From a virus (lineage: Duplodnaviria; Caudoviricetes), in the IMG/VR virus record IMGVR_UViG_2930305612_000002, positions 2,176 through 66,175 of that record: DNA of 64,000 bases. One strand, 5' to 3'. Of this stretch, positions 4,250 to 61,337 are shown piece by piece. Both the position numbers and the translations under genes were made by a program. The notes under the pieces were generated by a model. The model saw nothing but the letters and a program-made list of their open reading frames with translations. It was not told the DNA's origin and did not search any database. How positions within the stretch are numbered: the first letter of the stretch is position 1; each line of letters opens with the position of its first letter.

Positions 4250-4465
4250 TCACGACGCTTCCGGGTCAATGAAGTCGGCGACGGCGTACACCGCCATCTG
4301 CGGGTCAGTGAATCCTTCGGCTTCCGCATCCCAGTTCCGCTGCTTCGCCGCAAGTTCGTGAGCATGCTTGGCGAGCGCCGCCAACACAATCCGTTCGTCC
4401 TCGGCTGCCGACTGGTCGGGGCGGCGGGTGACGAGTGCGGTCATCAGGTCCTGGTAGGCGCTCAT
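4250..4465 (-). CDS. Hypothetical protein
   Basis: AGGAGG RBS before ATG 4465. Confidence 0.55.
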   Translation of the reverse strand: MSAYQDLMTALVTRRPDQSAAEDERIVLAALAKHAHELAAKQRNWDAEAEGFTDPQMAVYAVADFIDPEAS

Positions 4466-4510: not shown

Positions 4511-4646
4511 AGAGTTGCGTGATCGCCAGCACTTCCGAGAACACGAAGGGCCCCACCCGTCGACCGGAGTGGAGCCCGCGATACGGCATGTTATCGAGGG
4601 TCAACTCACCCAAGCCGGCGCGCTTCAGGGAACGTTATGCGCTACC

Positions 4647-7122: not shown

Positions 7123-7347
7123 TCACACGCCAGCCGGCCCGCGGTGCGTATGCCGGGCAGCCCACCCCGAGACGAACGTGATGGCCGTCGGTACGAGGGC
7201 GAGCAGGAACGGCTCCACGCCGTCGGGCAGTCCGCCGACGAGGCCGCTGTTGTCCTGGATCGCAGTGAGTATGGCCAGGAGGCCGGTGCTGGCGAGGTAC
7301 GCCGCGACGGTGGCGGCGGTGACCTTCTTCTCTACGGGTGCAGGCAT
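7123..7347 (-). CDS. Holin
   Basis: 74 aa, two TM segments, directly after endolysin. Confidence 0.8.
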   Translation of the reverse strand: MPAPVEKKVTAATVAAYLASTGLLAILTAIQDNSGLVGGLPDGVEPFLLALVPTAITFVSGWAARHTHRGPAGV

Positions 7348-7361
7348 GGTGGTGTGTCCCT

Positions 7362-8210
7362 TCAGGGGGTGATGTCGAGACGGACGGTGACGTTCTCGAT
7401 GGCCTCGGTGATGCGGGCGACCAGCGCCTCCGGGTCGATCACCGCGTGGTGCGAGGCGAGTGCTGCGGCGAGCTGCTTGATGGCTTCGCCCTGTGCGGCG
7501 GTGCGGGCGTCCATGGCGCGGACTCGGTTGCCGATGTCCTTGAGGTAGGACTGAGCTTGCCAGTTGACGTTGGTGGTCTTGTCGCTGGCCGTGTTCGGGG
7601 CTGCGATCTTGTCGGTGAACCAGACGGCCTTGAAGATCTCGTCGGGGGTCATCTCGTCTTCCTCCTCTGGGGGAACGGTCTGGCCGTTGGCGCGGGCGGC
7701 GATCCCCGGGAAGACGACCTCGCGGAACTGCTTCACGCGCGCGTCGCCGGGACAGGCGGTGCCAGACACGGCCCACGCGGAGTGCAGGCGGTGGTAGCCG
7801 AAGCCGGGGTCGTCGTGGGTGCGGCAGATCCGCAGCGGGATGTCGTGCCGCTTGTGCAGCCACACGCCGAGGGCGATCAGCTTCTCGACCTGTGCGGGCG
7901 TCCACGGGTCGGAGCCCTGCAGATTCGAAGCGGTCTCGATGGACACCGCACCAGTTCCGTCTGGCCGCCGGTTCGCCGATGCGTTCGCGTCCGCGCGGGT
8001 CTCGGTGCCGATGAACTGACCCAGGTCCCCCTCGTAGCCGAGGCCGAAGTGGGATTCCAGGTTCGTCGAGTCGCGCCAGTACTCATACGTCCGCTTCGCC
8101 GTCCACGGCGCGATGATCGAGTGAACGATGAACTGCGTTGGTCGGATGGCCGGCTGACTATCCGACTCTGGCTGCAGCTCGTACTTCGTGGCGCCCGGAT
8201 ACCAGGCCAT
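7362..8210 (-). CDS. Endolysin, N-acetylmuramoyl-L-alanine amidase
   Basis: FIVHS, SHFG, SIET, GYHR, TACPG amidase_2 motifs. Confidence 0.9.
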   Translation of the reverse strand: MAWYPGATKYELQPESDSQPAIRPTQFIVHSIIAPWTAKRTYEYWRDSTNLESHFGLGYEGDLGQFIGTETRADANASANRRPDGTGAVSIETASNLQGSDPWTPAQVEKLIALGVWLHKRHDIPLRICRTHDDPGFGYHRLHSAWAVSGTACPGDARVKQFREVVFPGIAARANGQTVPPEEEDEMTPDEIFKAVWFTDKIAAPNTASDKTTNVNWQAQSYLKDIGNRVRAMDARTAAQGEAIKQLAAALASHHAVIDPEALVARITEAIENVTVRLDITP

Positions 8211-20768: not shown

Positions 20769-21800
20769 TCAGGCCAGAGATTCCACCGCGTCGCACCAAG
20801 CAGCCAGGTCGGCCGCCGGGTTGAGCTCCGCACTACGGGCCTTCGCCCGCTTCGCCGCCAGCCGGTACTCGGCAGGAGCCGCGAGCTTCCGCAGCACCGC
20901 CTCGTACCCCGCGACGTCGTTCCGGTCCACGAAGATGCCTGCTTCGCCCAGCGACTCGCACAGACCAGGCGTTGGGTGAGCCAGGACGGGGATGCCGGAC
21001 GCCAACGCTTCGACGCCGGCCCGGCCCCACGATTCGTAGGAGCTGGGCATGAGCAGGACTCGCGTGCGGGAGTAGACCCGTTCCCGCATGGCCTGGCCGT
21101 CGATGTGCTCGACGATCCCGACATTCGGAAGGTCCGGGAGAATCTGCTCGCCGTAGGCGCCGCGCACCGCCATGAACTCGGTGTCTGGCATCCGGCGAGC
21201 CAGGGACTCAAGGACCCGGCCCCCCTTCTCGGGGTTGCAGTTGATCAGGGTGACCTTCTTGCCGGGCTTCGTCGCGTAGTCCTCGGCGAACACCGGAGGG
21301 TTGACGATCAGCTCGGCAGCGGGGCGAACCGACTTCGGGTATTCGGCGAAGAACAGCTCTGCTTCAGCTCGCATCCACTGCGAATTGAAGACCGCCAGGG
21401 CCGTACCGCCGGCCGCCATGTCCCGGAACGTCGGCCGGTGCGTGTTGTGGCAGATCACCACCACCGGCTTGCTGTACCCGCGGGCCAGCGCCGACGTCGA
21501 CGGCACGCACTCCAGGTGCGACATCAGCACGTCCGCCTTACGGACCGCTGCTGCAAAGTCCATCCGGGCCCCAAGCGGCACGACTTTGATGCCCCGGTAC
21601 TCGTAGGGCTCGTGAGCCTTCCCGTACCGGGACAGCCAAACGGACACGTCGTGACCGCGGTCCACCAAGGGCCGCAGCATGCTGACGAGCATGTGCTCAG
21701 CCCCCGCATTGTGCTCCGGGGGCATCGCGTGGACCCTGGCGACGATCTGTAGCGGCTTGGCCGCCCCGCCCGGCGCGGAAGCCGGGACAGCCCTAGCCAT
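20769..21800 (-). CDS. GT4-like (GT-B fold) glycosyltransferase
   Basis: HNAGAEH, EKGG, MPSSYESWGRAGVEALASGIPV (E-x7-E). Confidence 0.9.
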   Translation of the reverse strand: MARAVPASAPGGAAKPLQIVARVHAMPPEHNAGAEHMLVSMLRPLVDRGHDVSVWLSRYGKAHEPYEYRGIKVVPLGARMDFAAAVRKADVLMSHLECVPSTSALARGYSKPVVVICHNTHRPTFRDMAAGGTALAVFNSQWMRAEAELFFAEYPKSVRPAAELIVNPPVFAEDYATKPGKKVTLINCNPEKGGRVLESLARRMPDTEFMAVRGAYGEQILPDLPNVGIVEHIDGQAMRERVYSRTRVLLMPSSYESWGRAGVEALASGIPVLAHPTPGLCESLGEAGIFVDRNDVAGYEAVLRKLAAPAEYRLAAKRAKARSAELNPAADLAAWCDAVESLA

Positions 21801-22759
21801 CAGGTCCCCGAGGGGCTGCTGGTGAACTTGACGAAGGCTTCCTCGTCGCCGAGGACGAAGCCGTAGTAGGCCTCAGCCAGCAACAATTCCAGGTTCTCCT
21901 GGAACGCCGAGTGGACGCCGCCGTCCTCGTCGATGTATGTCGCCTCGCGGGACCGCTTGATACTGATCTCCATGCCCACGCCGTAGGCCGCCTGTGACCA
22001 GTCGCCACCGATCGCACGCAGCCCAGAGTCGGCGCTGCCCGACTGGCGACGGAGCTTTCCGGACACGCTGCGGGAGTAGGCGATCGGCTCGCCAATCAGT
22101 TCGCCCTGAAGCGCAGCCCCGGTACCGTGCCCCGGTTGCCGGGTCGCCACGAACAGCGGCTCACCCGTCGTGCTGGTAGCAGCCAGCAACTTCGGCTTGA
22201 GGCGGTTATCGGCGACGGTGCCGGTGTAGTCCCAGTCGTCGTCGATGATCTCCTCCATGCCGTCGACGAAGTCGCGCCAGATGCCGCCCGTCCCCTGCGA
22301 CGCTGTCCCCAGCGAAACGCTCTTGGTCGTGGCCGCGAGGTAGTCCTGGAACGGACCGGCCCCCCCTCGCATGTTCTTGCCGTGAATGGTGGCCATGTCA
22401 AAGGCGCGGGCGAACGCCGTCGGCAGGTCACGTTGCAGCTGAGTCCACAGCCCCGCAGCGTTGGACTGCACGACCTCCATTGAGACGGGGATGAGGACGG
22501 CGATCTTCTTGCCAGACATCTGCTTGACTTCGATCCCACCGGACGAGAGGGGCTTGCGGCCACCTTCCGACACCCAGTCGGCGGTCGGCACGTCCAGCGG
22601 CACAGGCACGGCGGTGTTCGCCGACATGCTCAGGGGGACGCGCCGCGCTAGCGACATGACGGCTGACCCCTCGACCGACTTATCGAAGATGGGGGCGACC
22701 AACGTCTCCGGCAAGAAGACGGGGTCGACGGTAGAAAGCTTGATCGGGCTAGTGGCCAT
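21800..22759 (-). CDS. Major capsid protein (HK97 fold)
   Basis: ADWVSEGGRKP, KKIAVLIPVSME, GDWSQ, FQENL. Confidence 0.92.
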   Translation of the reverse strand: MATSPIKLSTVDPVFLPETLVAPIFDKSVEGSAVMSLARRVPLSMSANTAVPVPLDVPTADWVSEGGRKPLSSGGIEVKQMSGKKIAVLIPVSMEVVQSNAAGLWTQLQRDLPTAFARAFDMATIHGKNMRGGAGPFQDYLAATTKSVSLGTASQGTGGIWRDFVDGMEEIIDDDWDYTGTVADNRLKPKLLAATSTTGEPLFVATRQPGHGTGAALQGELIGEPIAYSRSVSGKLRRQSGSADSGLRAIGGDWSQAAYGVGMEISIKRSREATYIDEDGGVHSAFQENLELLLAEAYYGFVLGDEEAFVKFTSSPSGT

Positions 22760-22774
22760 CGGGGACTACCTTTC

Positions 22775-23368
22775 TCAGCGGCCCCGTGTGAGGCCCTGCT
22801 TCATGAAGGCGGCAAACTCGGCCGCCGGATCGTTGGAAGTGCGGTTGTTGTTGCCCGAGGAGCCCTGTGTGCGATCTGGACGGGGGGAACGCGGCCCCCC
22901 ATCTGGCCTGCCCCAGTGCGGCTTCCGCTTCAGCAGGTCGGCCAGATCTGACTTGATGCCCTCGGTGTCGATGACGCCGTCGTCATCCACGTAGGCGGCG
23001 AGGTCGAGAGCGCCAGCGGCGTCCTCGGGATCGGCGAACTCCGCCGACGCGAGAGCCTCGACCTTCGAGGCGACCGCGGTACGGACAGCCTTCGCGGCCC
23101 GCTCCTCGGCGGCCGTAAGCTGCCCTTGAAGACGCTCCGCGTCCGACTTTTGCGCGTCCTTCAGCGCCTGCGCCTCGCGGGCAAGGGGCTCCAGATCGCT
23201 CGCCTTGGTGCGGTACTTGGCCGCCTCCTTACGAAGCTTCTCGATCTCCCTGCGTGCCGCATTCGGGTCGGCCCACGGGTCCGCCTTGGTCGCCTCCGCC
23301 TCCGGGGCGGTCTCGGTCTCCTGCGACTCCGTCTCAACCTGCTGCTCTGTCTGGGTCTCTTCGGGCAT
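22775..23368 (-). CDS. Capsid scaffolding protein
   Basis: Acidic N-terminus, KLRKEAAKYRT coiled coil; precedes capsid gene. Confidence 0.85.
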   Translation of the reverse strand: MPEETQTEQQVETESQETETAPEAEATKADPWADPNAARREIEKLRKEAAKYRTKASDLEPLAREAQALKDAQKSDAERLQGQLTAAEERAAKAVRTAVASKVEALASAEFADPEDAAGALDLAAYVDDDGVIDTEGIKSDLADLLKRKPHWGRPDGGPRSPRPDRTQGSSGNNNRTSNDPAAEFAAFMKQGLTRGR

Positions 23369-23373
23369 GACTG

Positions 23374-23417
23374 TTTCGCCCTCCAGGGGCTGAGAAAGGC
23401 CACCTCCAGGGCGGCCA
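23374..23417 (-). promoter_or_regulatory. Two CUGGA-loop hairpins in scaffold leader
   Basis: GGCCGCC-CTGGA-GGTGGCC and GCCC-CTGGA-GGGC, the latter containing the SD. Confidence 0.6.
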
Positions 23418-23424
23418 TTGGGGA

Positions 23425-24195
23425 TTACAGAACGGGCATGTGCCCGTGGTCGGCGAGAGCCTGGCGGAACCGCCTCAGCTGATCGCCCGAGTGGGGCGCC
23501 GCGAACTCGCGGTACAGCCGCTCCCACTCACGCGCATGATCGGACAGCTCGAACCGCTGCCCTCTGAACACCGGGACCACGCCGCAATGACAGCCGTCGT
23601 GGGCACGGAAGTCTGCTGTGTCCTGCTTGTACACGGCCCGGCGAGTGACCAGCATCTTGCAAAACGCGCATGCACCCAACGCGGCGGAACGAGCCCACGC
23701 TGTTGCCTGACCATCTCGGCGCACCGCCTCCTGGACAGTGCCCCTTCCCTGGTCGGCGACGAGCTTCTGCGCGACCGCCTCGGCCTTCTTCTCCGCCTGG
23801 GCCAGCCTGATATCGAGAGGCTCGCGCTGGGCTTCTGTGGTCGCCGGATCCTCTGGATCTCGCTCCCAGATGTCCTTCGTCGCCCAGCGAAGACTGTTCT
23901 GCACCTGCTCCTCGGGTGGCGGGTCCAGCAACGGCACCGTGAACCGGCCCGTCACCCGGGCCGCCACACGCTCCGCCTCGTAGTAGTCCGCCGCCAGCGC
24001 CGCTGACGCAGTCCCGTACTGGTCAACCAGAGCACGCACAGCCTCGATCCAGTCCGGGACCGTCGCCTGCAGCCGGGACGGGATGATGAGCCGCCGCAGA
24101 CCTCGCATGTCCCGCACCAGCATCCTCGTCAGGCCGCGCTGGGCCCGGCGGTTACGGTCCGCCGAAGCGCCACCGTCAGAGACCCTCGTCGCCAT
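23425..24195 (-). CDS. MuF-like / VG15-like minor head protein
   Basis: ACAFCKML...AHDGCHC; between portal and scaffold. Confidence 0.75.
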   Translation of the reverse strand: MATRVSDGGASADRNRRAQRGLTRMLVRDMRGLRRLIIPSRLQATVPDWIEAVRALVDQYGTASAALAADYYEAERVAARVTGRFTVPLLDPPPEEQVQNSLRWATKDIWERDPEDPATTEAQREPLDIRLAQAEKKAEAVAQKLVADQGRGTVQEAVRRDGQATAWARSAALGACAFCKMLVTRRAVYKQDTADFRAHDGCHCGVVPVFRGQRFELSDHAREWERLYREFAAPHSGDQLRRFRQALADHGHMPVL

Positions 24196-25618
24196 CCGGC
24201 GCCTCCGGGTCCTCATCCGTTTCCGGATCCTCTTCATTGCCAGCCTGCGCCAGACGTTCCAGTAGCTGCCTGCCCTGAGCCCGGCGCCGGTCCGCGGCAA
24301 TCCGGCGACGCTGGTCCTCGGTGAAGCCGGCCATCTCCAGCAGCACATCCGAGTCCGCCGGCACGATGCCGGCCTGGGCCAGCTTCACGGAGGCGTCAGT
24401 CTGGGCTGCCAGCGTCGGCGTTGCCGGGTTCCGCCACACGGTCTCGATGCGCCGGGTCTTGTCCGGCGGCTCGCCGTCACGGAACCACAGCGCCAGACGC
24501 ATGTACTCGCGGTGCGTGGCGCCGAACCGGCGGATGCGCCTCTCGGCCTTCTTCACCAGCGAGTTGTCTGCGAACCGGATCGCGTCGGCGGAAGCCGGGT
24601 TGTCGCTGCTGTATCCGAGCGTGTGGGGCGCCACGGAGAGCTGTGAGGCCATGATGCGGGCGTACAGGTCGATGATCTTCGTCATGCCGGTCGGGTCGTG
24701 AGCCGAGAACTGGCCCACCGTCGGCACCGCGCCGTCCTCGTCCCGCTCCAACGCCAAAACGCGGCCGATGTACGTCTCCCAGGCGCTCTTGGCATTGCCC
24801 TCGGCGTCCTGGAACGCCGACTCGGAGGCGCCGAGGATGTACCGCTGTGGGGCGCCGAAGAACTCGGCCGCCACCTCGATACCCATCAGTCGGCGGCAGG
24901 CCGCATCCGTGATTGACATGACCTCGGGGGTGATCTCCGACTTCCCGACCCTGTCCGCGGTCCGCTGGCGGTTCGCCATGCGCAGCACCGGGGGTACGCC
25001 CAGCCCGTGCATGTCCCGCTCGATCACTTCCCAGCCGCCGCTCGACAAGCCGACCGCATGGATCGTCTGCATCGGCATGTACAGCGTCACCAGTTTGTCT
25101 TCTGGCGCCAGCCCGAAGTCGAACCGGTCCTCGCACTCGCGCAGGCCGTACAGCGGCATCCGCAGTCGGGCATCCCACATGAGCGTCATGTCCAGCGGCG
25201 ACTCGAACGTGATGATCGGCGGAGCGTCGTCCGCGTCCGCCGAGCCAACCGTCACGTACTCACGACCGTAAGTCAGCGCATCCAAGTGCGCCAGGCTCGC
25301 CTCGTCGAACAGGTCATTCGCCTCGGCGATCTCCTTCAGGTCGGAAGCGTCCGAACCGTCGGCCCACCGAAAGGCCTCCAAGTCGAGGCGCTGCTCCAGC
25401 GCCTCGACGCCGATCCGCGGCCAGCCGATGACCGTATGCAGGCCCTCAAGCTGCGGCGGGATGGAGATCTTCAAGTCGCGGACCAGCTGCTCGCCGTTGA
25501 AGTACGCGTCCAGGAGTTCCAGCTTGAAGCGGGCGCTCGACAGATCCGACCGAAGCGTCGTCAGAATCTGTACCTCGTCATCCGACAGCCCAAGCAGGGG
25601 AAGGGTTGGGATCGTCAT
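24176..25618 (-). CDS. Portal protein (SPP1 gp6-like)
   Basis: GWPRIGVEALEQRL, NPASADAIR, WRNPATPT. Confidence 0.92.
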   Translation of the reverse strand: MTIPTLPLLGLSDDEVQILTTLRSDLSSARFKLELLDAYFNGEQLVRDLKISIPPQLEGLHTVIGWPRIGVEALEQRLDLEAFRWADGSDASDLKEIAEANDLFDEASLAHLDALTYGREYVTVGSADADDAPPIITFESPLDMTLMWDARLRMPLYGLRECEDRFDFGLAPEDKLVTLYMPMQTIHAVGLSSGGWEVIERDMHGLGVPPVLRMANRQRTADRVGKSEITPEVMSITDAACRRLMGIEVAAEFFGAPQRYILGASESAFQDAEGNAKSAWETYIGRVLALERDEDGAVPTVGQFSAHDPTGMTKIIDLYARIMASQLSVAPHTLGYSSDNPASADAIRFADNSLVKKAERRIRRFGATHREYMRLALWFRDGEPPDKTRRIETVWRNPATPTLAAQTDASVKLAQAGIVPADSDVLLEMAGFTEDQRRRIAADRRRAQGRQLLERLAQAGNEEDPETDEDPEAPDGDEGL

Positions 25619-27345
25619 CGCAGCACCACCACCCGTCCCTTACCGCGCGCCGACGAGCGCTTCGCCCACGCCGCTGAGTTCATGACGATCCGGCGCAGCA
25701 TCCGCGCGCCGATCGCACACACCAGCAAGTCGATCTTCCGAGCGGACTCACGGTGCTCCTTCATGACCGTGTAGCCCCAGGCGTTCGTCCGCCGCCGGCC
25801 GTTGGACACGTGCTGCCGCAGCACTTTGTGGCCGTCGTGCAGCATCTGCCGCTCCAGCACATCGCGGTAGAACCGGTCCACAGCCTCCGTGAAGACCTGC
25901 TGGCGGCGCCGGTCACGCATGTCCCACATCACCGCGTGCTGGCCGTGGCCGCTGGAAACGGCCTTCAGCTTCAGCCTCTTGCCGTACCGCTGCGCCCACG
26001 CGTCCACGAAGCCGTCCCAGTACCGCTCCCCGTCCGCCTCGTCCTGGCCCGCCCCCGGGTCGGCGAAGAACGCCAGAGGCTTGTAGTCGGCGAACACCTT
26101 GTCCACCACCCCGTCGACCTGGTCGCGGGGCACGCGCCAAGGGGTGCCGTCCGGCCAGTTCGCCGGCTTCTGCCACACGCCCAACGTCTTGAGGAAGCCG
26201 TCCGACAGACGGCATCCGACCAGGCCCGTCGCGTCGTCCGACTTGGAGCCGTCGAAGAACAGGACGATCTCGTCACCGGGCTGCAGGTCCATGCCCTCGT
26301 GCGGGCAGGCGTCCCACTCATACGGGGCCAGGAACGCGTCCTCGGCGGCCACGATCTGGTTGAACCAGAAGCGGCGCGACCTGCTCGCCGGGTTGCGGAC
26401 ATCGAGAATCGACGCCTTCAGCCGCTCAATGTCCAGCCACGTCGAATCGCCGCGCACAGCCTTCAGGGTGGGAACGATCCACGCCTCGCTCAGCTTCGCC
26501 TCGGCCGGAGCCTCCAAGCTGTCGTAGAACAGGCCCACGTCAGCCGCGCGTCCGGCCTCCGCCGACTCGAACGCTTCTCTGGTTCGCTCGGCCACCGAAT
26601 CTTCGCCCGGCTCATAGGCGTTGGTGTTCGCCAACGTCCGGGCCTGGCCGTCGGCGCTCTTCGTGGCGTTGCGCTCGATCACGGCCGCCATCTCGTGGCC
26701 ACTGTTCGACTCCACCCAGTGGTGCGTCTCGCCGAGGCTCACGAACGTCGGCCTGCCGCCCTCCAGCGCCCTCGGGGAGCTCGTCACGGCCTCAATCCGG
26801 GCCCGCCCCTTGTCGGCGTAGATGATCTCCTTGCCGAGGTCGATCCGGAACTCTTCGATCGCCCTCTTCGTCAGGATCGACGGAAACAACGTCATCGTGT
26901 TCCGCGTCTGATCCTGGCTGACGGCAGCGATCTGAACCCAGGCTGCCGGATGTTGAACACCCAGAGGCTGCCCCGGCGGTACGCCCCACTCGTTACCTTC
27001 ATCGGCGATCCCGCCGAACCGGCAGGGCCCCACGAACTCGAAGGCGGCATAGGTCGCGACCAAGGGGTCCTTCCCGTGCCCCTTCATTCGCTGGATCACG
27101 CCGTCGCGCCACACGAAACGGCCCGTGACCGGATCCATCGCGTACCACCACAGCGTCAATCGCGCCTGCTCCGGGGTGTACCGCCACGGCGCTCCGACGT
27201 AGTGCTGCAGGTACTCCGACGTCCACGCCAGCGCCTGCCAGCCCAGCGTGAACTCCGGCAGCACGAACTTGCCGTCCGGGCCACGCTTCCAGGTCGGGCC
27301 GACCGTGAAGGGGGTGACAACCTCGGGGACTTCCTCGTCAGCCAC
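25615..27345 (-). CDS. terL: Terminase large subunit
   Basis: RMKGHGKDP Walker A, LGETHHW, FFDGSKSDDAT, RKIDLLV. Confidence 0.95.
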   Translation of the reverse strand: MADEEVPEVVTPFTVGPTWKRGPDGKFVLPEFTLGWQALAWTSEYLQHYVGAPWRYTPEQARLTLWWYAMDPVTGRFVWRDGVIQRMKGHGKDPLVATYAAFEFVGPCRFGGIADEGNEWGVPPGQPLGVQHPAAWVQIAAVSQDQTRNTMTLFPSILTKRAIEEFRIDLGKEIIYADKGRARIEAVTSSPRALEGGRPTFVSLGETHHWVESNSGHEMAAVIERNATKSADGQARTLANTNAYEPGEDSVAERTREAFESAEAGRAADVGLFYDSLEAPAEAKLSEAWIVPTLKAVRGDSTWLDIERLKASILDVRNPASRSRRFWFNQIVAAEDAFLAPYEWDACPHEGMDLQPGDEIVLFFDGSKSDDATGLVGCRLSDGFLKTLGVWQKPANWPDGTPWRVPRDQVDGVVDKVFADYKPLAFFADPGAGQDEADGERYWDGFVDAWAQRYGKRLKLKAVSSGHGQHAVMWDMRDRRRQQVFTEAVDRFYRDVLERQMLHDGHKVLRQHVSNGRRRTNAWGYTVMKEHRESARKIDLLVCAIGARMLRRIVMNSAAWAKRSSARGKGRVVVLR

Positions 27346-27775
27346 CGATACGGGACTGATAGTCGGCGATCGCTGTCACGCTCGCCGGCCCCTGCTTGGC
27401 CGCCGGCTTCCGCTCCAGCTCCATGCGCGCACGTCGCCGTTCCCCCTCGGTCGACAGCAGCGACGACATCACCGAGTTCAATGCAGCCACCAGTTGCCCA
27501 TTCGGCGGCCGGTCGGACTGCAGGGCTCGGGACATCAGCTCGGCGGCGTACCGGGCGACAGCCCAGTCCGACGGCTCGTAGAACGCGGCCTGACCGGATT
27601 CCCGCAGTGACAGATACCAGTCCACCGCGATCTCGTGCCAGTGCTCCGCCGGCTCCGGCAGATCGGGGAGTTCCGCGGGCGGGCCCGCCGGGGCCTGCAC
27701 CAGATCCGGGCCGTCGTCCTTGTTGCGGCGCCGGCGCTCCTCACTGCGCTTCGGGATCGGTCCGTGAGCGCCCAT
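27338..27775 (-). CDS. terS: Terminase small subunit
   Basis: GPIPKRSEERRRRN...TEGERRRARMEL; GGAGG RBS. Confidence 0.88.
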   Translation of the reverse strand: MGAHGPIPKRSEERRRRNKDDGPDLVQAPAGPPAELPDLPEPAEHWHEIAVDWYLSLRESGQAAFYEPSDWAVARYAAELMSRALQSDRPPNGQLVAALNSVMSSLLSTEGERRRARMELERKPAAKQGPASVTAIADYQSRIGG

Positions 27776-27776
27776 G

Positions 27777-27853
27777 TCGACCTCCAGGGTCAAGCGCCAC
27801 CAGGGCGCGAAAGGGGCTGAGAACGCATCGACAAGGGACGCCACCAGGGCATT
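27777..27853 (-). promoter_or_regulatory. Three CUGG(A/U)-loop hairpins in terS leader
   Basis: ATGCC-CTGGT-GGCGT, GCGCC-CTGGT-GGCGC, TTGACC-CTGGA-GGTCGA. Confidence 0.6.
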
Positions 27854-27973
27854 CCTTGATCACGATGAAAGGTTGTTGCAGGTCAGGGGCCCTAGGGAAC
27901 CCGTACAGACAGACAGGTGCTATACGGCCCCGATCCCTGAAGATCGCCGGGAGGGGGTATCCCCCCAGGGTGA

Positions 27974-28177
27974 TCACGCGGCGAGGCGTTGGAAGTTGAT
28001 CTCGCTGGACCTCAGCGCTGCGCCGGCAAGGGCCCTGGCGTGTGGATCAGTCGAGGTTGTTGCGATGTTCGCGAGAACGTCAGCGAAGAGCTGATCTTCG
28101 AGTCCGTGAGCATGTTCGTAGTCCCGTGAGACATCGGCTATCGCCTGCACACGCTGCTGCACATGGGAGACGTCCAT
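27974..28177 (-). CDS. Hypothetical protein
   Basis: GGAGG RBS; DYEHAHGLEDQLF. Confidence 0.6.
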   Translation of the reverse strand: MDVSHVQQRVQAIADVSRDYEHAHGLEDQLFADVLANIATTSTDPHARALAGAALRSSEINFQRLAA

Positions 28178-28196
28178 GCCTGCCTCCCTCCGTGCC

Positions 28197-28433
28197 CTAC
28201 CGCCTGCGCCTGCCGGCGTTGGCCCTGCTCCCTGGCCATGCACCTGTGCGTGCTCGGTGCATGCGTGCGCAGTAGCCCTTGGCTCGTGGTCCTAGGTACT
28301 TACTCAGCTGCCTGTTGCACCTGGTCCAGTCGCCTGGTGTACCCCACCTGATGCGTGCTGCACCTGCGCCCTGTCCCCAGTAGGCCCTGAGTTGGGCAGC
28401 GTTGCCTGCCCTGCTGCGCCCCTTGCCTGCCAC
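28197..28433 (-). CDS. Small basic phage protein
   Basis: GAGGAG RBS; IRWGTPGDWTRC...GYCARMH. Confidence 0.65.
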   Translation of the reverse strand: MAGKGRSRAGNAAQLRAYWGQGAGAARIRWGTPGDWTRCNRQLSKYLGPRAKGYCARMHRARTGAWPGSRANAGRRRR

Positions 28434-28438
28434 GTGGA

Positions 28439-28639
28439 TCACTCCTCGTGCTGGTTGTCCTCGGGTTCGTCGATGCGGGTGATGGTCGCCCCTGCGTGTG
28501 CAGGGATGGCAAGGCATGGTCCGTGCTGGTCTGTGAGGACTGCCCATTCACCTTGGATGGTGAGCTTGAGTTCAGGGTCCTCGACGAGGATGTCCTCACC
28601 TTGCTTCCCCTTGGGGTGGGCGATCAGGTAGCGGGGCAT
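28439..28639 (-). CDS. Hypothetical protein
   Basis: AAGGAG RBS; closely follows HNH gene. Confidence 0.65.
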   Translation of the reverse strand: MPRYLIAHPKGKQGEDILVEDPELKLTIQGEWAVLTDQHGPCLAIPAHAGATITRIDEPEDNQHEE

Positions 28640-28641
28640 GC

Positions 28642-28938
28642 CTACTCCTTCAGCCCGGGGTGCTTCTCGGCAGGGCGCGTTCTCCCTGGCCGAGGGTTCG
28701 CACGCTGGGCGGCGTTCCCTTCAGCGCTAGACTTTTGATCGTGGCAGGGGCCGCATACGCCTTGAAGGCCGACCTCGGAATGATCGTCCTTCTTCGCTTC
28801 GATGTGGTCGCAGAAGGCGGATGGTCTGACGTCGCAGATCTTGCAGATCGGGTCGCGCGCCAGGATGCGGGCCCGGATCTTCGACCAGCCGGAAGGTAGC
28901 CGATTCTTGCGGTCCGAGCCCTGCCAGCCGCCGCTCAC
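28642..28938 (-). CDS. HNH endonuclease (terminase-associated type)
   Basis: CKIC...CDHI...LQGVCGPCHDQKS. Confidence 0.9.
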   Translation of the reverse strand: MSGGWQGSDRKNRLPSGWSKIRARILARDPICKICDVRPSAFCDHIEAKKDDHSEVGLQGVCGPCHDQKSSAEGNAAQRANPRPGRTRPAEKHPGLKE

Positions 28939-29276
28939 TGGACGGCGGCTCGTGCGTCGGCTTGAGCCTTGGCGACTGCGTCCATGACCTGCTCGTGGAA
29001 GCCTGTGAGGTCGGGCTCGACTCGGATCCGGACGACGTTGCCGTCTGCGGCTTCGGTCAGGGTGACCTCGTTGGCAGGGATGTCGATGGTCTCTTCGAAG
29101 ACGAGGACGGCCCGGGCGCCGATCTTCTGGGCGACACCTTCGAACTGGTCGACAGGCTCGGGCTGGTCGGGGCCGATTATGTAGCGCTGCGTCACGTACT
29201 CGTCGACGACGAGGACGAAGGACGGCCGTTCGTCTCCGGCGCCTTCGGGAAGTTCGAGGATCTGAATGCGGGCCAT
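28935..29276 (-). CDS. Hypothetical protein
   Basis: MARIQILELP; conserved leader. Confidence 0.7.
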   Translation of the reverse strand: MARIQILELPEGAGDERPSFVLVVDEYVTQRYIIGPDQPEPVDQFEGVAQKIGARAVLVFEETIDIPANEVTLTEAADGNVVRIRVEPDLTGFHEQVMDAVAKAQADARAAVQ

Positions 29277-29292
29277 GGCGCGGGCTCCTGGG

Positions 29293-29574
29293 TTAGCGGG
29301 GCAGTGTGCGAGCGAGACGCTGGCCGTGGGACTGGAGCGCCCGACCGATGGCTTCGCGCAGCTTGCTGTCGTCGAGGTAGAGGTCGACGGTCGTTTCGCT
29401 GGCGAGGGGCGGGTTCTTGCGAACGCTAAGGACGTTGTCGGCGGGGACGAGGAGGACGATGCCCTCCTTGTCGCAGACGGCGCGGAACATGCGCTCCGCC
29501 TCGTCGTAGTCGACCCGGTCGGCGCCGATCCGCTCGCTAATGCCGTTCAGGAACTGGAAGAGATATGAGGCCAT
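29293..29574 (-). CDS. Hypothetical protein
   Basis: Same 20-bp leader as neighbouring gene. Confidence 0.6.
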   Translation of the reverse strand: MASYLFQFLNGISERIGADRVDYDEAERMFRAVCDKEGIVLLVPADNVLSVRKNPPLASETTVDLYLDDSKLREAIGRALQSHGQRLARTLPR

Positions 29575-59900: not shown

Positions 59901-61217
59901 GTGGCCCATGCCGAGAAGGTCTACAAGGTCCGCAACGGCAAGCAGACGAAGCAGTTCACGTGGCGGGTCCGGTACAAGAAGCCGGACGGGACGTGGGGGT
60001 CGGAGCCAGGCTTTCCGACCAAGAAGACGGCGGAGGACTGGGGGGACGGCCAGGAGGCAGCGATCAAGGCGGGCCGATGGATTGACCCGGACCTCCAGCG
60101 CAAGCACTTCGGGGAGTTCGCCCGGACGTTCATGAAGGCTCGGGTCAAGCGCGGCCGGACGATGGACAAGAGGTGGGATTTGCTGCAGACCCACATTCTG
60201 CCCAAGTGGGAACACGCCCCGCTGATCGGCATCACATGGTTCGACGTCGACTCGTGGCAGATGACGCTCGACTGCGAAGACGTGACGGCAGGACATGCGG
60301 TGTCACTGATGTCGACGATCCTGACGGCCGCGGTGGACGCGAAGCACATCACGGTGAATCCGCTCTTCGGTCGGCGCCGCACGCAGCCCTCGGCGCCGGC
60401 GCCCAAAAAGCCGAAGAAGACGGACGAGGAGAAGTGGGCGCCGCCGGAGGTTGTCATTCAGCTCGCGCAGCGCCTGGGGCCCGCCACTGGCATGCACGTG
60501 CTGACGACAGCCTTCACTGGGCTGCGCTGGGGTGAGGGTGCGGGTCTCCACCGGGACAACGTCCTGAAGACGCGGCGGCAGGCGAACGATGGCGGCTGGT
60601 TCGAGTGTCCTGTCATCAAGGTGGTGCCCGACGTGGGTGAGCTGTCCGAGGTCGAGTTGCGCGACGACGAGGGCAACAAGCTCGGCACGGTGTTGCGGCT
60701 GGAGAACCCGAAGAGCGAGAAGGGTGTCAGGGATATCGATCTGCCGCCGTTTCTTGCGCAGTTGCTGCGTTACCACCTCGACGACTGGCCGCATTCTTAC
60801 GTCTTCTGCACTCCGTCGGGGAAGTTCTGGCGGCGGGGCAACTGGGGGAAAGTGCTGCGGCCGGCGGCGGACGGGCGCCCCGAGCGGGAGAAGCGGCAGG
60901 GGGTGTCGCCCCGGCCGGCCTGGGAGCCGATCATGCCAGGGCTGGATATGAGGGCGCTGCGGCACACGCACGACACTTATCAGGATCAGATCGGCGTGCG
61001 GCCTTCTCTGGCGCACGAGCAGGCCGGGCATAAGATGAGTGGCATCAAGGGCGTGTACCAGCACCCAACGCCGACGATGCGGCAGGAGCGCCTGGACGGT
61101 CTTGAAGAGATCTTCTGGCGCGGGATGCGCAACCTGGGGCTGAAGACGCTGTGGAACAGAGTTGATCTCCGGAAAATCCCCCAAACGATCAACGACGATC
61201 TAGCCAATGCGGCTTAG
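59901..61217 (+). CDS. int: Tyrosine integrase
   Basis: Arm-binding N-terminus WRVRY...GFPTKKTA; TGLRWGE, PKS, ALRH, GH, VYQH. Confidence 0.93.
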   Translation: MAHAEKVYKVRNGKQTKQFTWRVRYKKPDGTWGSEPGFPTKKTAEDWGDGQEAAIKAGRWIDPDLQRKHFGEFARTFMKARVKRGRTMDKRWDLLQTHILPKWEHAPLIGITWFDVDSWQMTLDCEDVTAGHAVSLMSTILTAAVDAKHITVNPLFGRRRTQPSAPAPKKPKKTDEEKWAPPEVVIQLAQRLGPATGMHVLTTAFTGLRWGEGAGLHRDNVLKTRRQANDGGWFECPVIKVVPDVGELSEVELRDDEGNKLGTVLRLENPKSEKGVRDIDLPPFLAQLLRYHLDDWPHSYVFCTPSGKFWRRGNWGKVLRPAADGRPEREKRQGVSPRPAWEPIMPGLDMRALRHTHDTYQDQIGVRPSLAHEQAGHKMSGIKGVYQHPTPTMRQERLDGLEEIFWRGMRNLGLKTLWNRVDLRKIPQTINDDLANAA

Positions 61218-61263: not shown

Positions 61264-61310
61264 CCGCTCTCCTAAAGCGGGTGTCGCAGGTTCGAATCCT
61301 GCCGGGGGCA
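61264..61310 (+). other. att core: 3' part of tRNA-Arg(CCT), not a full tRNA
   Basis: Anticodon arm CCGCT-CTCCTAA-AGCGG, T arm GCAGG-TTCGAAT-CCTGC, acceptor 3' strand CGGGGGCA; no D arm or 5' acceptor strand upstream. Confidence 0.88.
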
Positions 61311-61337
61311 CAGCCTGCGTAGCAGGTCAGGACCCCT

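Follow-up and report, generated by a model that had tools for sequence, protein, structure and literature searches.

Six short RNA hairpins of one design stand at the start sites of two head genes in the DNA stretch analysed here (hereafter the window), which covers 64,000 nucleotides of a Caudoviricetes provirus of Streptomyces (positions 2,176 to 66,175 of IMG/VR record IMGVR_UViG_2930305612_000002). The two genes are terS, encoding the terminase small subunit, and the gene of the head scaffolding protein. The hairpins are conserved in related loci, their arms covary, they are specific to one strand, and they are tied to the starts of both genes. They represent a conserved and apparently undescribed RNA hairpin motif, by which the start regions of terS and of the scaffold gene are marked in many kinds of actinobacterial phage. 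As to their function, we tentatively read them, with a probability of about 0.4, as translational operator arrays recognised by one trans-acting factor; the binding of such a factor, its identity and the sign of its effect are what we infer.

Both genes lie on the minus strand. The terS gene (27338-27775, stop included; ATG 27775-27773) was assigned by Pfam Terminase_7 (E 7.8e-46), and the scaffold gene (22775-23368, stop included; ATG 23368-23366) by Pfam and PHROG profile matches, namely Phage_scaffold at E 1.7e-5, which is under the curated cut-off, and PHROG scaffold families down to E 5.6e-13. On the mRNA (minus) strand, each hairpin has a pentaloop of the form C-N-G-G-(A/U/C) on a stem whose closing pairs are CC/GG. 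Five of them had been named in a previous reading of the sequence (the original prediction), and all five are found on the minus strand where it had placed them, with the sequences it gave; its total was one short, as a sixth was found inside the scaffold open reading frame (ORF). Three hairpins occupy the terS leader. Hairpin A (AUGCC-CUGGU-GGCGU, 27838-27852, -4.1 kcal/mol) is the most distal and can be extended to 27832-27858 (CAAGG...CCUUG). Hairpin B (GCGCC-CUGGU-GGCGC, 27794-27808), with an energy of about -4.4 kcal/mol computed with coordinates one base off, is the upstream partner of hairpin C (UUGACC-CUGGA-GGUCGA, 27777-27793, -5.4 kcal/mol), which carries the terS Shine-Dalgarno (SD) sequence GGAGG, ending 5 nt ahead of the ATG at 27775. 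In the scaffold leader, hairpin D (GGCCGCC-CUGGA-GGUGGCC, 23398-23416, -12.5 kcal/mol, z -3.1) is located directly 3' of the stop codon of the VG15/MuF-like gene and is followed by UUUCUCA, and hairpin E (GCCC-CUGGA-GGGC, 23378-23390, -5.3 kcal/mol) carries the scaffold SD GGAGG upstream of the ATG at 23368. The start-proximal hairpin thus holds the SD in both leaders, as had been anticipated. Hairpin F (CCGCC-CCGGA-GGCGG, 23296-23310, -7.7 kcal/mol), which came from a relaxed scan, lies 58 nt into the scaffold ORF. The window contains 8 copies of the underlying 9-mer, CCCTGGWGG, where 2.31 +/- 1.70 would be expected; 1 of 100 shuffles has as many, and five of the eight copies fall on the minus strand within the two leaders of about 75 and 40 nt.

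A 12-mer, TTCTCAGCCCCT, had also been proposed as common to both leaders. It is indeed exact in both (on the minus strand as UUCUCAGCCCCU, at 27812-27823 in the terS leader and at 23385-23396 in the scaffold leader, where it spans the D-E linker and the 5' arm of E); in the terS leaders of relatives it is not conserved. Among 95 unique terS leaders it is exact in one, the window itself, has 2 mismatches in three and at least 3 in the rest, and with up to 2 mismatches it was found 6 times against 4.69 expected, which is no enrichment. Conservation of TTTCTCAGC is restricted to scaffold leaders, and UUUCUCAGC is part of the consensus of 87 of them.

Conservation and covariation in related loci

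The comparison set was built from TerS relatives and comprises 80 viral loci and 41 genome-contig loci, almost all from Streptomyces, in total 1.46 Mb. In these 121 loci CCCTGGWGG is present 508 times in the sense and 19 times in the antisense orientation, at about -77, -33 and -14 ahead of terS and twice ahead of the scaffold gene. When the window is counted in, a stem of at least 4 bp surrounds 441 of 514 sense copies, in comparison to about 16% of 16,739 control CCN5GG sites. With seven distant or truncated loci left out, such a stem is found in 233 of the 241 copies in terS leaders and in all 173 in scaffold leaders, while copies in terL, in the capsid gene and in the next ORF have only the 2 forced pairs in 42 of 44 cases. 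The end of the helix at site D is sharp: pairs 1-7 are 96-100% paired and position 8 only 20%, and when 87 unique scaffold leaders are taken together, 99.7% of the cells of these seven pairs are paired. At site B the outer pairs 4-7 are paired in 100, 89, 90 and 75%, respectively, and position 8 in 26%.

Aligned over 87 of 88 unique scaffold leaders (L096 was left out), hairpins D and E have 99.8% of their cells paired, with 8 double-change cells on 4 pairs; none of 500 shuffles was as good, and slid registers gave 40-65% paired. Site B, in 74 unique sequences, has 93.6% of cells paired and 36 double-change cells against 11.0 in shuffles, again with no shuffle of 500 as good and with slid registers at 24-62%. 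Site A is weaker. There, 79.9% of cells are paired in 69 unique sequences, with 42 double-change cells against 24.5 in shuffles (0 of 500 as good), and one slid register exceeds the true one in double changes. Hairpin E is fully paired in all 87 sequences, among which a single exchange, G-C to A-U, is seen, and the core of hairpin C, GACC-CUGGA-GGUC, is nearly invariant. The paired stems of the original prediction are therefore backed by covariation in homologous leaders, at the scaffold leader and site B. A long-range minimum-energy fold of the scaffold leader was rejected, as 500 of 500 shuffles were equally good on the alignment. The numbers of G-U versus A-C cells, 89:2 in the scaffold leader, 57:2 at site B and 41:14 at site A, show an excess of G-U, and the structure therefore belongs to the sense strand, i.e., to RNA.

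The arrangement of the hairpins is kept as well. The loop of hairpin C begins 12 nt ahead of the terS start in 107 of 107 loci, the loops of B and C are 18-20 nt apart in 78 of 106, and the D-to-E spacing is 21-25 nt in 68 loci and 30-31 nt in 31. Within the loop C1, G3 and G4 never vary, and neither do the two G's that close it or the C's with which these pair. At site B (73 unique sequences) loop position 5 is U in 46, A in 23 and C in 4; at site A (69 sequences: 30 U, 17 A, 22 C) it is more relaxed than elsewhere, and some site-A orthologues retain the hairpin with an unrelated loop. G is absent at position 5 in the site tables, and C, the base at loop position 1, is the only one that cannot pair with an A or U at position 5. 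With a covariance model of the scaffold leader, the terS leader was the best non-self match in the window (20.9 bits, E 0.003), and matches were obtained in 9 of 151 sampled Streptomyces genomes.

Constraint on hairpin F can be followed at the codon level. A motif hairpin of at least 4 bp is present at +30 to +110 in 71 of 89 unique scaffold 5' ORFs, in one frame throughout; the commonest positions are +58, +61 and the stretch from +103 to +109. Fifty of these ORFs encode an x-A-(P/L)-E-A peptide, and all 50 use the same codons for it, GCC, C(C/U)G, GAG and GCG, whereas across all copies the residue encoded at the loop is P, L, Q or R. Since synonymous change is suppressed while the amino acid is free, it can be concluded that hairpin F is constrained at the RNA level. 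In the first 200 nt of the terS ORF, no motif hairpin was found in any of 99 unique relatives.

A by-product of chance or of base composition in a genome of 70% G+C would agree with whole-leader folding that is no better than in shuffles and with a 12-mer that, at 2 mismatches, is not enriched. It is refuted by the comparative data, that is, by a motif kept at orthologous sites and on one strand, by covarying stems, by the suppression of synonymous change and by the return of the design in distant phages (described below), and we regard its probability as negligible.

Two further stretches resemble the motif. The scaffold-leader model weakly matches the window at 7339-7411 on the minus strand (19.9 bits, E 0.005), upstream of a 74-aa ORF; the loop, CUGAA, is without G-G, and the match is probably due to chance or a degenerate copy. 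In the VG15/MuF gene of one related locus (L007, at 10699) and of 16 others, GGUCC-CUGGU-GGACC or a weaker form of it occurs at about +300, with 5 bp in 7 of the 17 and without a counterpart in the window. This may represent an additional site, or it may be a coincidence of the coding sequence (S-L-V-D).

Distant phages and the relation to cos

In order to describe the reach of the motif we rely on two samples. An IMG/VR pattern scan for two tandem motifs followed by a start codon, in which the loop sequence is imposed by design, gave at least 120 stretches, of which 94 matches in 80 loci are listed. Among the matches listed in which both stems have at least 4 bp, 28 are ahead of scaffold homologues, 15 ahead of Terminase_7 homologues and 18 ahead of proteins not linked to those of the window by blastp. 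Ten of these blastp-unlinked proteins, again among the matches listed, were compared with protein families; five proved to be small terminases of another family and five to be head scaffolding proteins of other PHROGs. All five of these terminases match phrog_1496, and four also match Pfam Terminase_4 at E 7e-6 to 0.003; only the one from L191 is above the curated cut-off, and the one from L193 has no Pfam match. The second sample, which is unbiased, consists of relatives of one phrog_1496-type TerS (11 loci, G+C 0.58-0.73). Two hairpins precede terS in 10 of the 11 loci, eight also have the hairpin pair ahead of a gene about 4.2-4.3 kb downstream, and several have an F-like hairpin further in. 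These phages share with the window 42-52% identity in TerL, 24-45% in portal, 24-37% in VG15 and 32-45% in HNH. The design common to terS and scaffold leaders, as put forward in the original prediction, is thus kept across phages whose proteins have diverged or been replaced.

Among cultured phages, Microbacterium phage Footloose (39.7 kb) shows the complete design. When stems of at least 4 bp are required, its genome holds six motif hairpins, five of them sense and the sixth, of 4 bp, antisense. The sense hairpins are located at 43 and 65 ahead of terS (gene 1), at 4305 and 4327 ahead of the scaffold gene, and at 4577 inside it. Bernal13 has SD hairpins only, in Attoomi CCCTGGAGG stands at three starts but lacks good stems there, and no motif hairpin was found ahead of terS in Endor2. 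The blastn comparison of both leaders with 50,697 phage records gave no relevant match. One clear exception to the terS/scaffold placement was seen among the well-stemmed matches listed: in the viral contig L158 (766-996) the tandem motif is ahead of a 65-aa protein with an N-terminus like that of the 113-aa ORF at 28938-29276 of the window.

The terS hairpins also lie close to what appears to be the end of the phage genome. Upstream of hairpin A, the window can be aligned to the physical ends of three phages (Attoomi of Streptomyces, Bernal13 of Mycobacterium and Footloose of Microbacterium), and from this alignment the left genome end of the provirus would be near 27921, 146 nt ahead of the terS ATG. 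Hairpins A-C would therefore be in a cosB-like position in this prophage. This brings in a DNA-level explanation, namely that the motif is a duplex-DNA site, either a cosB-like site of TerS or an orientation-dependent repressor site like the L5 stoperators. The distance of hairpins A-C from the inferred cos end, 70-145 nt, speaks for it, as lambda cosB is located at a comparable distance from cos, and so does the single orientation of the asymmetric 9-mer throughout. However, the relatives separate the hairpins from cos. In one class the pair of cos boxes is 104-157 nt upstream of terS, in another 690-892 nt, and among loci with at least 1 kb of upstream sequence the hairpins are at the terS start in all 43 with near boxes (up to 200 nt) and in all 34 with far boxes (650 nt or more). 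It is thus the terS start, and not cos, that the hairpins stay with, which disfavours a cosB-type DNA site, the very case that the original prediction had named as its refutation. Moreover, the same motif is found 4.4 kb away at the scaffold gene and ahead of two unrelated TerS families, its arms covary around a fixed centre, which is the reverse of a protein-bound inverted repeat, and G-U cells far exceed A-C cells. Taken together, these observations make a duplex-DNA role very improbable.

The known DNA sites differ in the same respects. L5-type stoperators are many oriented asymmetric DNA sites distributed genome-wide, for which flanking complementarity is not needed, whereas here the motif is at two loci only, the stems covary and G-U is far above A-C. 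Unlike cosB, the motif has no fixed position beside cos, and copies occur also at the scaffold gene.

Beside cos there are separate conserved boxes that suit cosB better. The cos-associated boxes CCGTATAG and CGGGTTCCC (27895-27927, minus strand), placed by alignment to physical phage ends, are context and stand outside the hairpin set. Together with the word AGCACCTGT (region 27895-27970) they match the left ends of Bernal13, Footloose and Attoomi, and an inverted repeat, CCCTGGGGGGATACCCCCTCCC, at about 27948-27970 is kept in the right end of Attoomi and in a Nonomuraea prophage (L118). As judged from sequence, these boxes and the repeat are better candidates than the hairpins for terminase recognition or cosB. 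In the far-box class (L007:6277-6921 and about 35 other loci) a 214-aa ORF with a Cys-rich N-terminus, which the window does not have, lies between cos and terS, and its stop codon overlaps hairpin A.

How the hairpins may be read

In the reading that we favour, the six hairpins would be cis-acting elements of the late mRNA, forming two operator arrays over initiation regions, A, B and C at terS and D, E and F at the scaffold gene. Half of the SD GGAGG is contained in the 3' arm of a weak hairpin of about -5 kcal/mol, C in one array and E in the other, and the neighbours of this hairpin have the same C-N-G-G-N pentaloop with CC/GG closure. One trans-acting factor may recognise the pentaloop with its closing pairs; bound to two or three adjacent hairpins, it would stabilise the SD hairpin and thereby lower initiation or set it otherwise. 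In this manner the packaging module (terS and the coupled terL, portal and MuF genes) and the scaffold-capsid module could be tuned together. The reader might be TerL, the HNH or the MuF-like protein; otherwise it would have to come from the host or be so small and diverged that tblastn misses it.

Two suggestions of the original prediction were not borne out. The first, a small basic protein (window 28200-28433, minus strand), is missing from its usual place in 13 hairpin-bearing relatives and is found in a hairpin-less Nonomuraea prophage. It has 78 aa, matches phrog_6439 and no Pfam family, has Arg-rich ends and an IRWGTPGDW motif, and is common, not universal, in the relatives. The second was an analogy to CsrA. 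Sites of CsrA/RsmA present GGA in hairpin loops, with one site over the SD, and the likeness lies in several G-G hairpin loops 18-30 nt apart, one of them overlapping the SD. However, loop position 5 is U in 46 of the 73 unique site-B sequences, so GGA is not required here, and a CsrA gene was not found. A regulon in the host was considered and rejected. A Streptomyces genome of 8.2 Mb has 104 copies of the 11-mer GCCCTGGWGGC and 52 of the reversed control, and among 30 of the 104 copies that were checked there are 19 stems of 3 bp, 7 of 4 bp, 3 of 5 bp and one of 6 bp, which is chance-like.

Several points weigh against the operator reading. The filter behind the site tables imposes pairs 1-3 and the C..GG. 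loop pattern, so that only the outer pairs count as free evidence; hairpins C and E contribute almost no covariation, because both barely vary; and the folding energies of the two whole leaders are ordinary (z -0.40 and +0.18 against shuffles). The small basic protein does not co-occur with the hairpins. CsrA (PF02599) had no match in the provirus or in the 8.2-Mb Streptomyces genome, which carries a related prophage, with E. coli, B. subtilis and T. maritima controls positive. Footloose and the window detectably share only TerL, HNH and part of MuF (tblastn, E 1e-4), so that a dedicated phage RNA-binding protein is not evident, although more sensitive methods might find more. A host protein that reads these hairpins without apparent host targets would be odd. 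Finally, all that is invariant comes down to GGWGG with its two complementary C's and to a C in the loop that is unable to pair with A or U, and this would also fit direct reading by the 3' tail of 16S rRNA.

The last point leads to an explanation without a protein reader, in which the 16S tail itself reads the displayed GGAGG or GGUGG, and the hairpins serve the ribosome as structured places for standby or landing, or protect the 5' end while ribosome-bound, as STAB-SD elements and the SP82 stabiliser do. Both translation and mRNA stability of terS and the scaffold gene would thereby become higher or steadier. The invariant core is GG-W-GG with its pairing partners. In the 16S 3' tail, GGAGG is complementary to CCUCC and GGUGG to UCACC. 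A universal reader would explain both the unchanged motif across TerS families and hosts and the fact that no shared phage RNA-binding protein was seen. At site D, U is found at the third position of the 3' arm (GGAGGUG) in 19 of 34 sequences with loop A against 6 of 49 with loop U, which is also in its favour. This association is not seen at sites A and B, however, and U or C at loop position 5 pairs poorly with the anti-SD, C being present in 22 of the 69 site-A loops. Half of each pentamer is buried in a covariation-kept stem, which is unexpected if ribosomes are to land there, and hairpin F, conserved within an ORF, is hard to account for. We consider this explanation, the main rival of the operator reading, rather unlikely. 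It is the conserved non-SD loops (U or C at position 5), the stems under selection and the one in-ORF copy from which we infer that a protein operator is slightly ahead of the anti-SD tail.

Another explanation takes the hairpins as punctuation of a polycistronic late mRNA. Hairpin D would be a 3'-end protector or weak terminator and the SD hairpins would be 5' protectors after cleavage in U-rich linkers, which would set different stabilities for the terS-to-MuF and scaffold-capsid segments. This is suited by the strength of the GC hairpin D (-12.5 kcal/mol) and by its place between a stop codon and UUUCUCA, and also by the UUUCUCAUUUCC after hairpin D in many relatives, by the equivalent hairpin of Bernal13 with a different loop and a UUUUGUG tail, by the site-A orthologues whose loop is unrelated, and by the linkers, which are the most U-rich parts of the leaders. 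No U tract follows A, B, C, E or F. A promoter and terminator scan of 21500-29500 gave no promoter-like site and called no terminator at any hairpin, D included, and a terminator ahead of the most abundant head proteins would be counter-productive. Moreover, the same loop and closing pairs at six sites and in distant phages are left unexplained, and so is hairpin F within an ORF. Punctuation seems doubtful to us, more so than the 16S tail.

It is a long shot that the pentaloops are read by an RNA instead of a protein, the hairpin arrays then being minimal sensors that would tie terminase and scaffold translation to the charging state of host tRNA. T-box leaders pair U-G-G-N with the free N-C-C-A end of uncharged tRNA, and the loop U-G-G-N is the same tetranucleotide. 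If true, this would be a protein-free RNA-RNA checkpoint for head assembly across phages of several actinobacterial genera.

Some known systems resemble operator arrays in part. In boxB-N of lambda and P22 a conserved pentaloop on a short stem, at two places in the genome, is read as RNA, but the boxB loop is purine-rich and GNRA-like and belongs to early operons with boxA and without start-site overlap. Here, short stems with a conserved pentaloop are likewise at two places, the nut test was negative, and the C-N-G-G-N loop is located at ribosome-binding sites of late head genes. In MS2 and PP7 a structural protein represses translation via a single hairpin at the ribosome-binding site, and synthesis of the P22 scaffold is controlled after transcription; to our knowledge, no RNA site has been defined in P22. 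The present case differs in having three-hairpin arrays ahead of two genes, and the RNA phages are unrelated viruses. The STAB-SD and SP82 5' stabilisers of Gram-positive bacteria are single-stranded, SD-like polypurine tracts near the 5' end that do not serve initiation. Leader SD-like sequences not used for initiation are a point of likeness, while here the SD-like pentamer is half buried in a covariation-kept hairpin.

A comparison with Rfam, which had been proposed together with the motif, gave no family. The Rfam 15 cmscan of 22000-29500, on both strands and with E up to 10, returned five matches of 16.6-23.4 bits, far below the gathering scores, none of them a bacterial or phage leader family. 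No description of the motif was found in the full-text literature, a coverage outside which supplements and subscription journals fall. The closest concept in print is that of the Start-Associated Sequences (SAS) and ESAS of Cluster K mycobacteriophages. SAS is given as a 13-bp GGGATAGGAGCCC in 11-19 copies at non-structural genes only, and ESAS as conserved 17-bp arms with a variable spacer (PMC3203893). Both systems are short oriented actinobacteriophage repeats just upstream of starts, SD region included, are found group-wide and are suspected of controlling translation; in contrast to SAS/ESAS, the sequence here is another one, there are six copies, only terS and the scaffold gene are concerned, and the loop is conserved while the arms covary.

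The finding matters in several ways. A compact RNA signature backed by covariation marks terS and the scaffold gene in Streptomyces prophages, in a cultured Microbacterium phage and in many uncultured relatives, and it persists even when the small terminase belongs to a different family. It is a candidate new RNA family for annotation, and with it the starts of terS and of the scaffold gene could be located in the genomes of actinophages. Except in a few models, little is understood of how phage morphogenesis is controlled after transcription, and the hairpins offer a testable handle on the balance between packaging and shell-building modules. Since Footloose can be grown, a direct test is possible.

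Genomic setting and neighbouring genes

The window derives from a 66-kb provirus record with a CheckV completeness of 100%, a G+C content of about 70% and genes nearly all on the minus strand. In minus-strand order, an HNH endonuclease gene and three small ORFs (28938-27974) are followed by the inferred cos, terS, terL, portal, the VG15/MuF-like gene, scaffold, major capsid and glycosyltransferase genes. The pairs terS-terL, terL-portal and portal-VG15 overlap, and the gap between scaffold and capsid genes is 15 nt; the terS and scaffold leaders are therefore the only sizeable gaps in the head module.

The glycosyltransferase gene (20772-21800, minus strand), immediately 3' of the major capsid gene, is of the GT4 family (Pfam Glyco_trans_1_4, E 2.2e-11; phrog_26352, E 8e-166), and from this position its product could serve virion glycosylation. 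At about 61290-61320 on the minus strand there is a stretch, GGATTCGAACC, resembling the 3' half of a tRNA, beside a 438-aa plus-strand ORF (59901-61217); ARAGORN found no complete tRNA in the window. This stretch is possibly the remnant of an attachment site beside a putative integrase encoded by that ORF.

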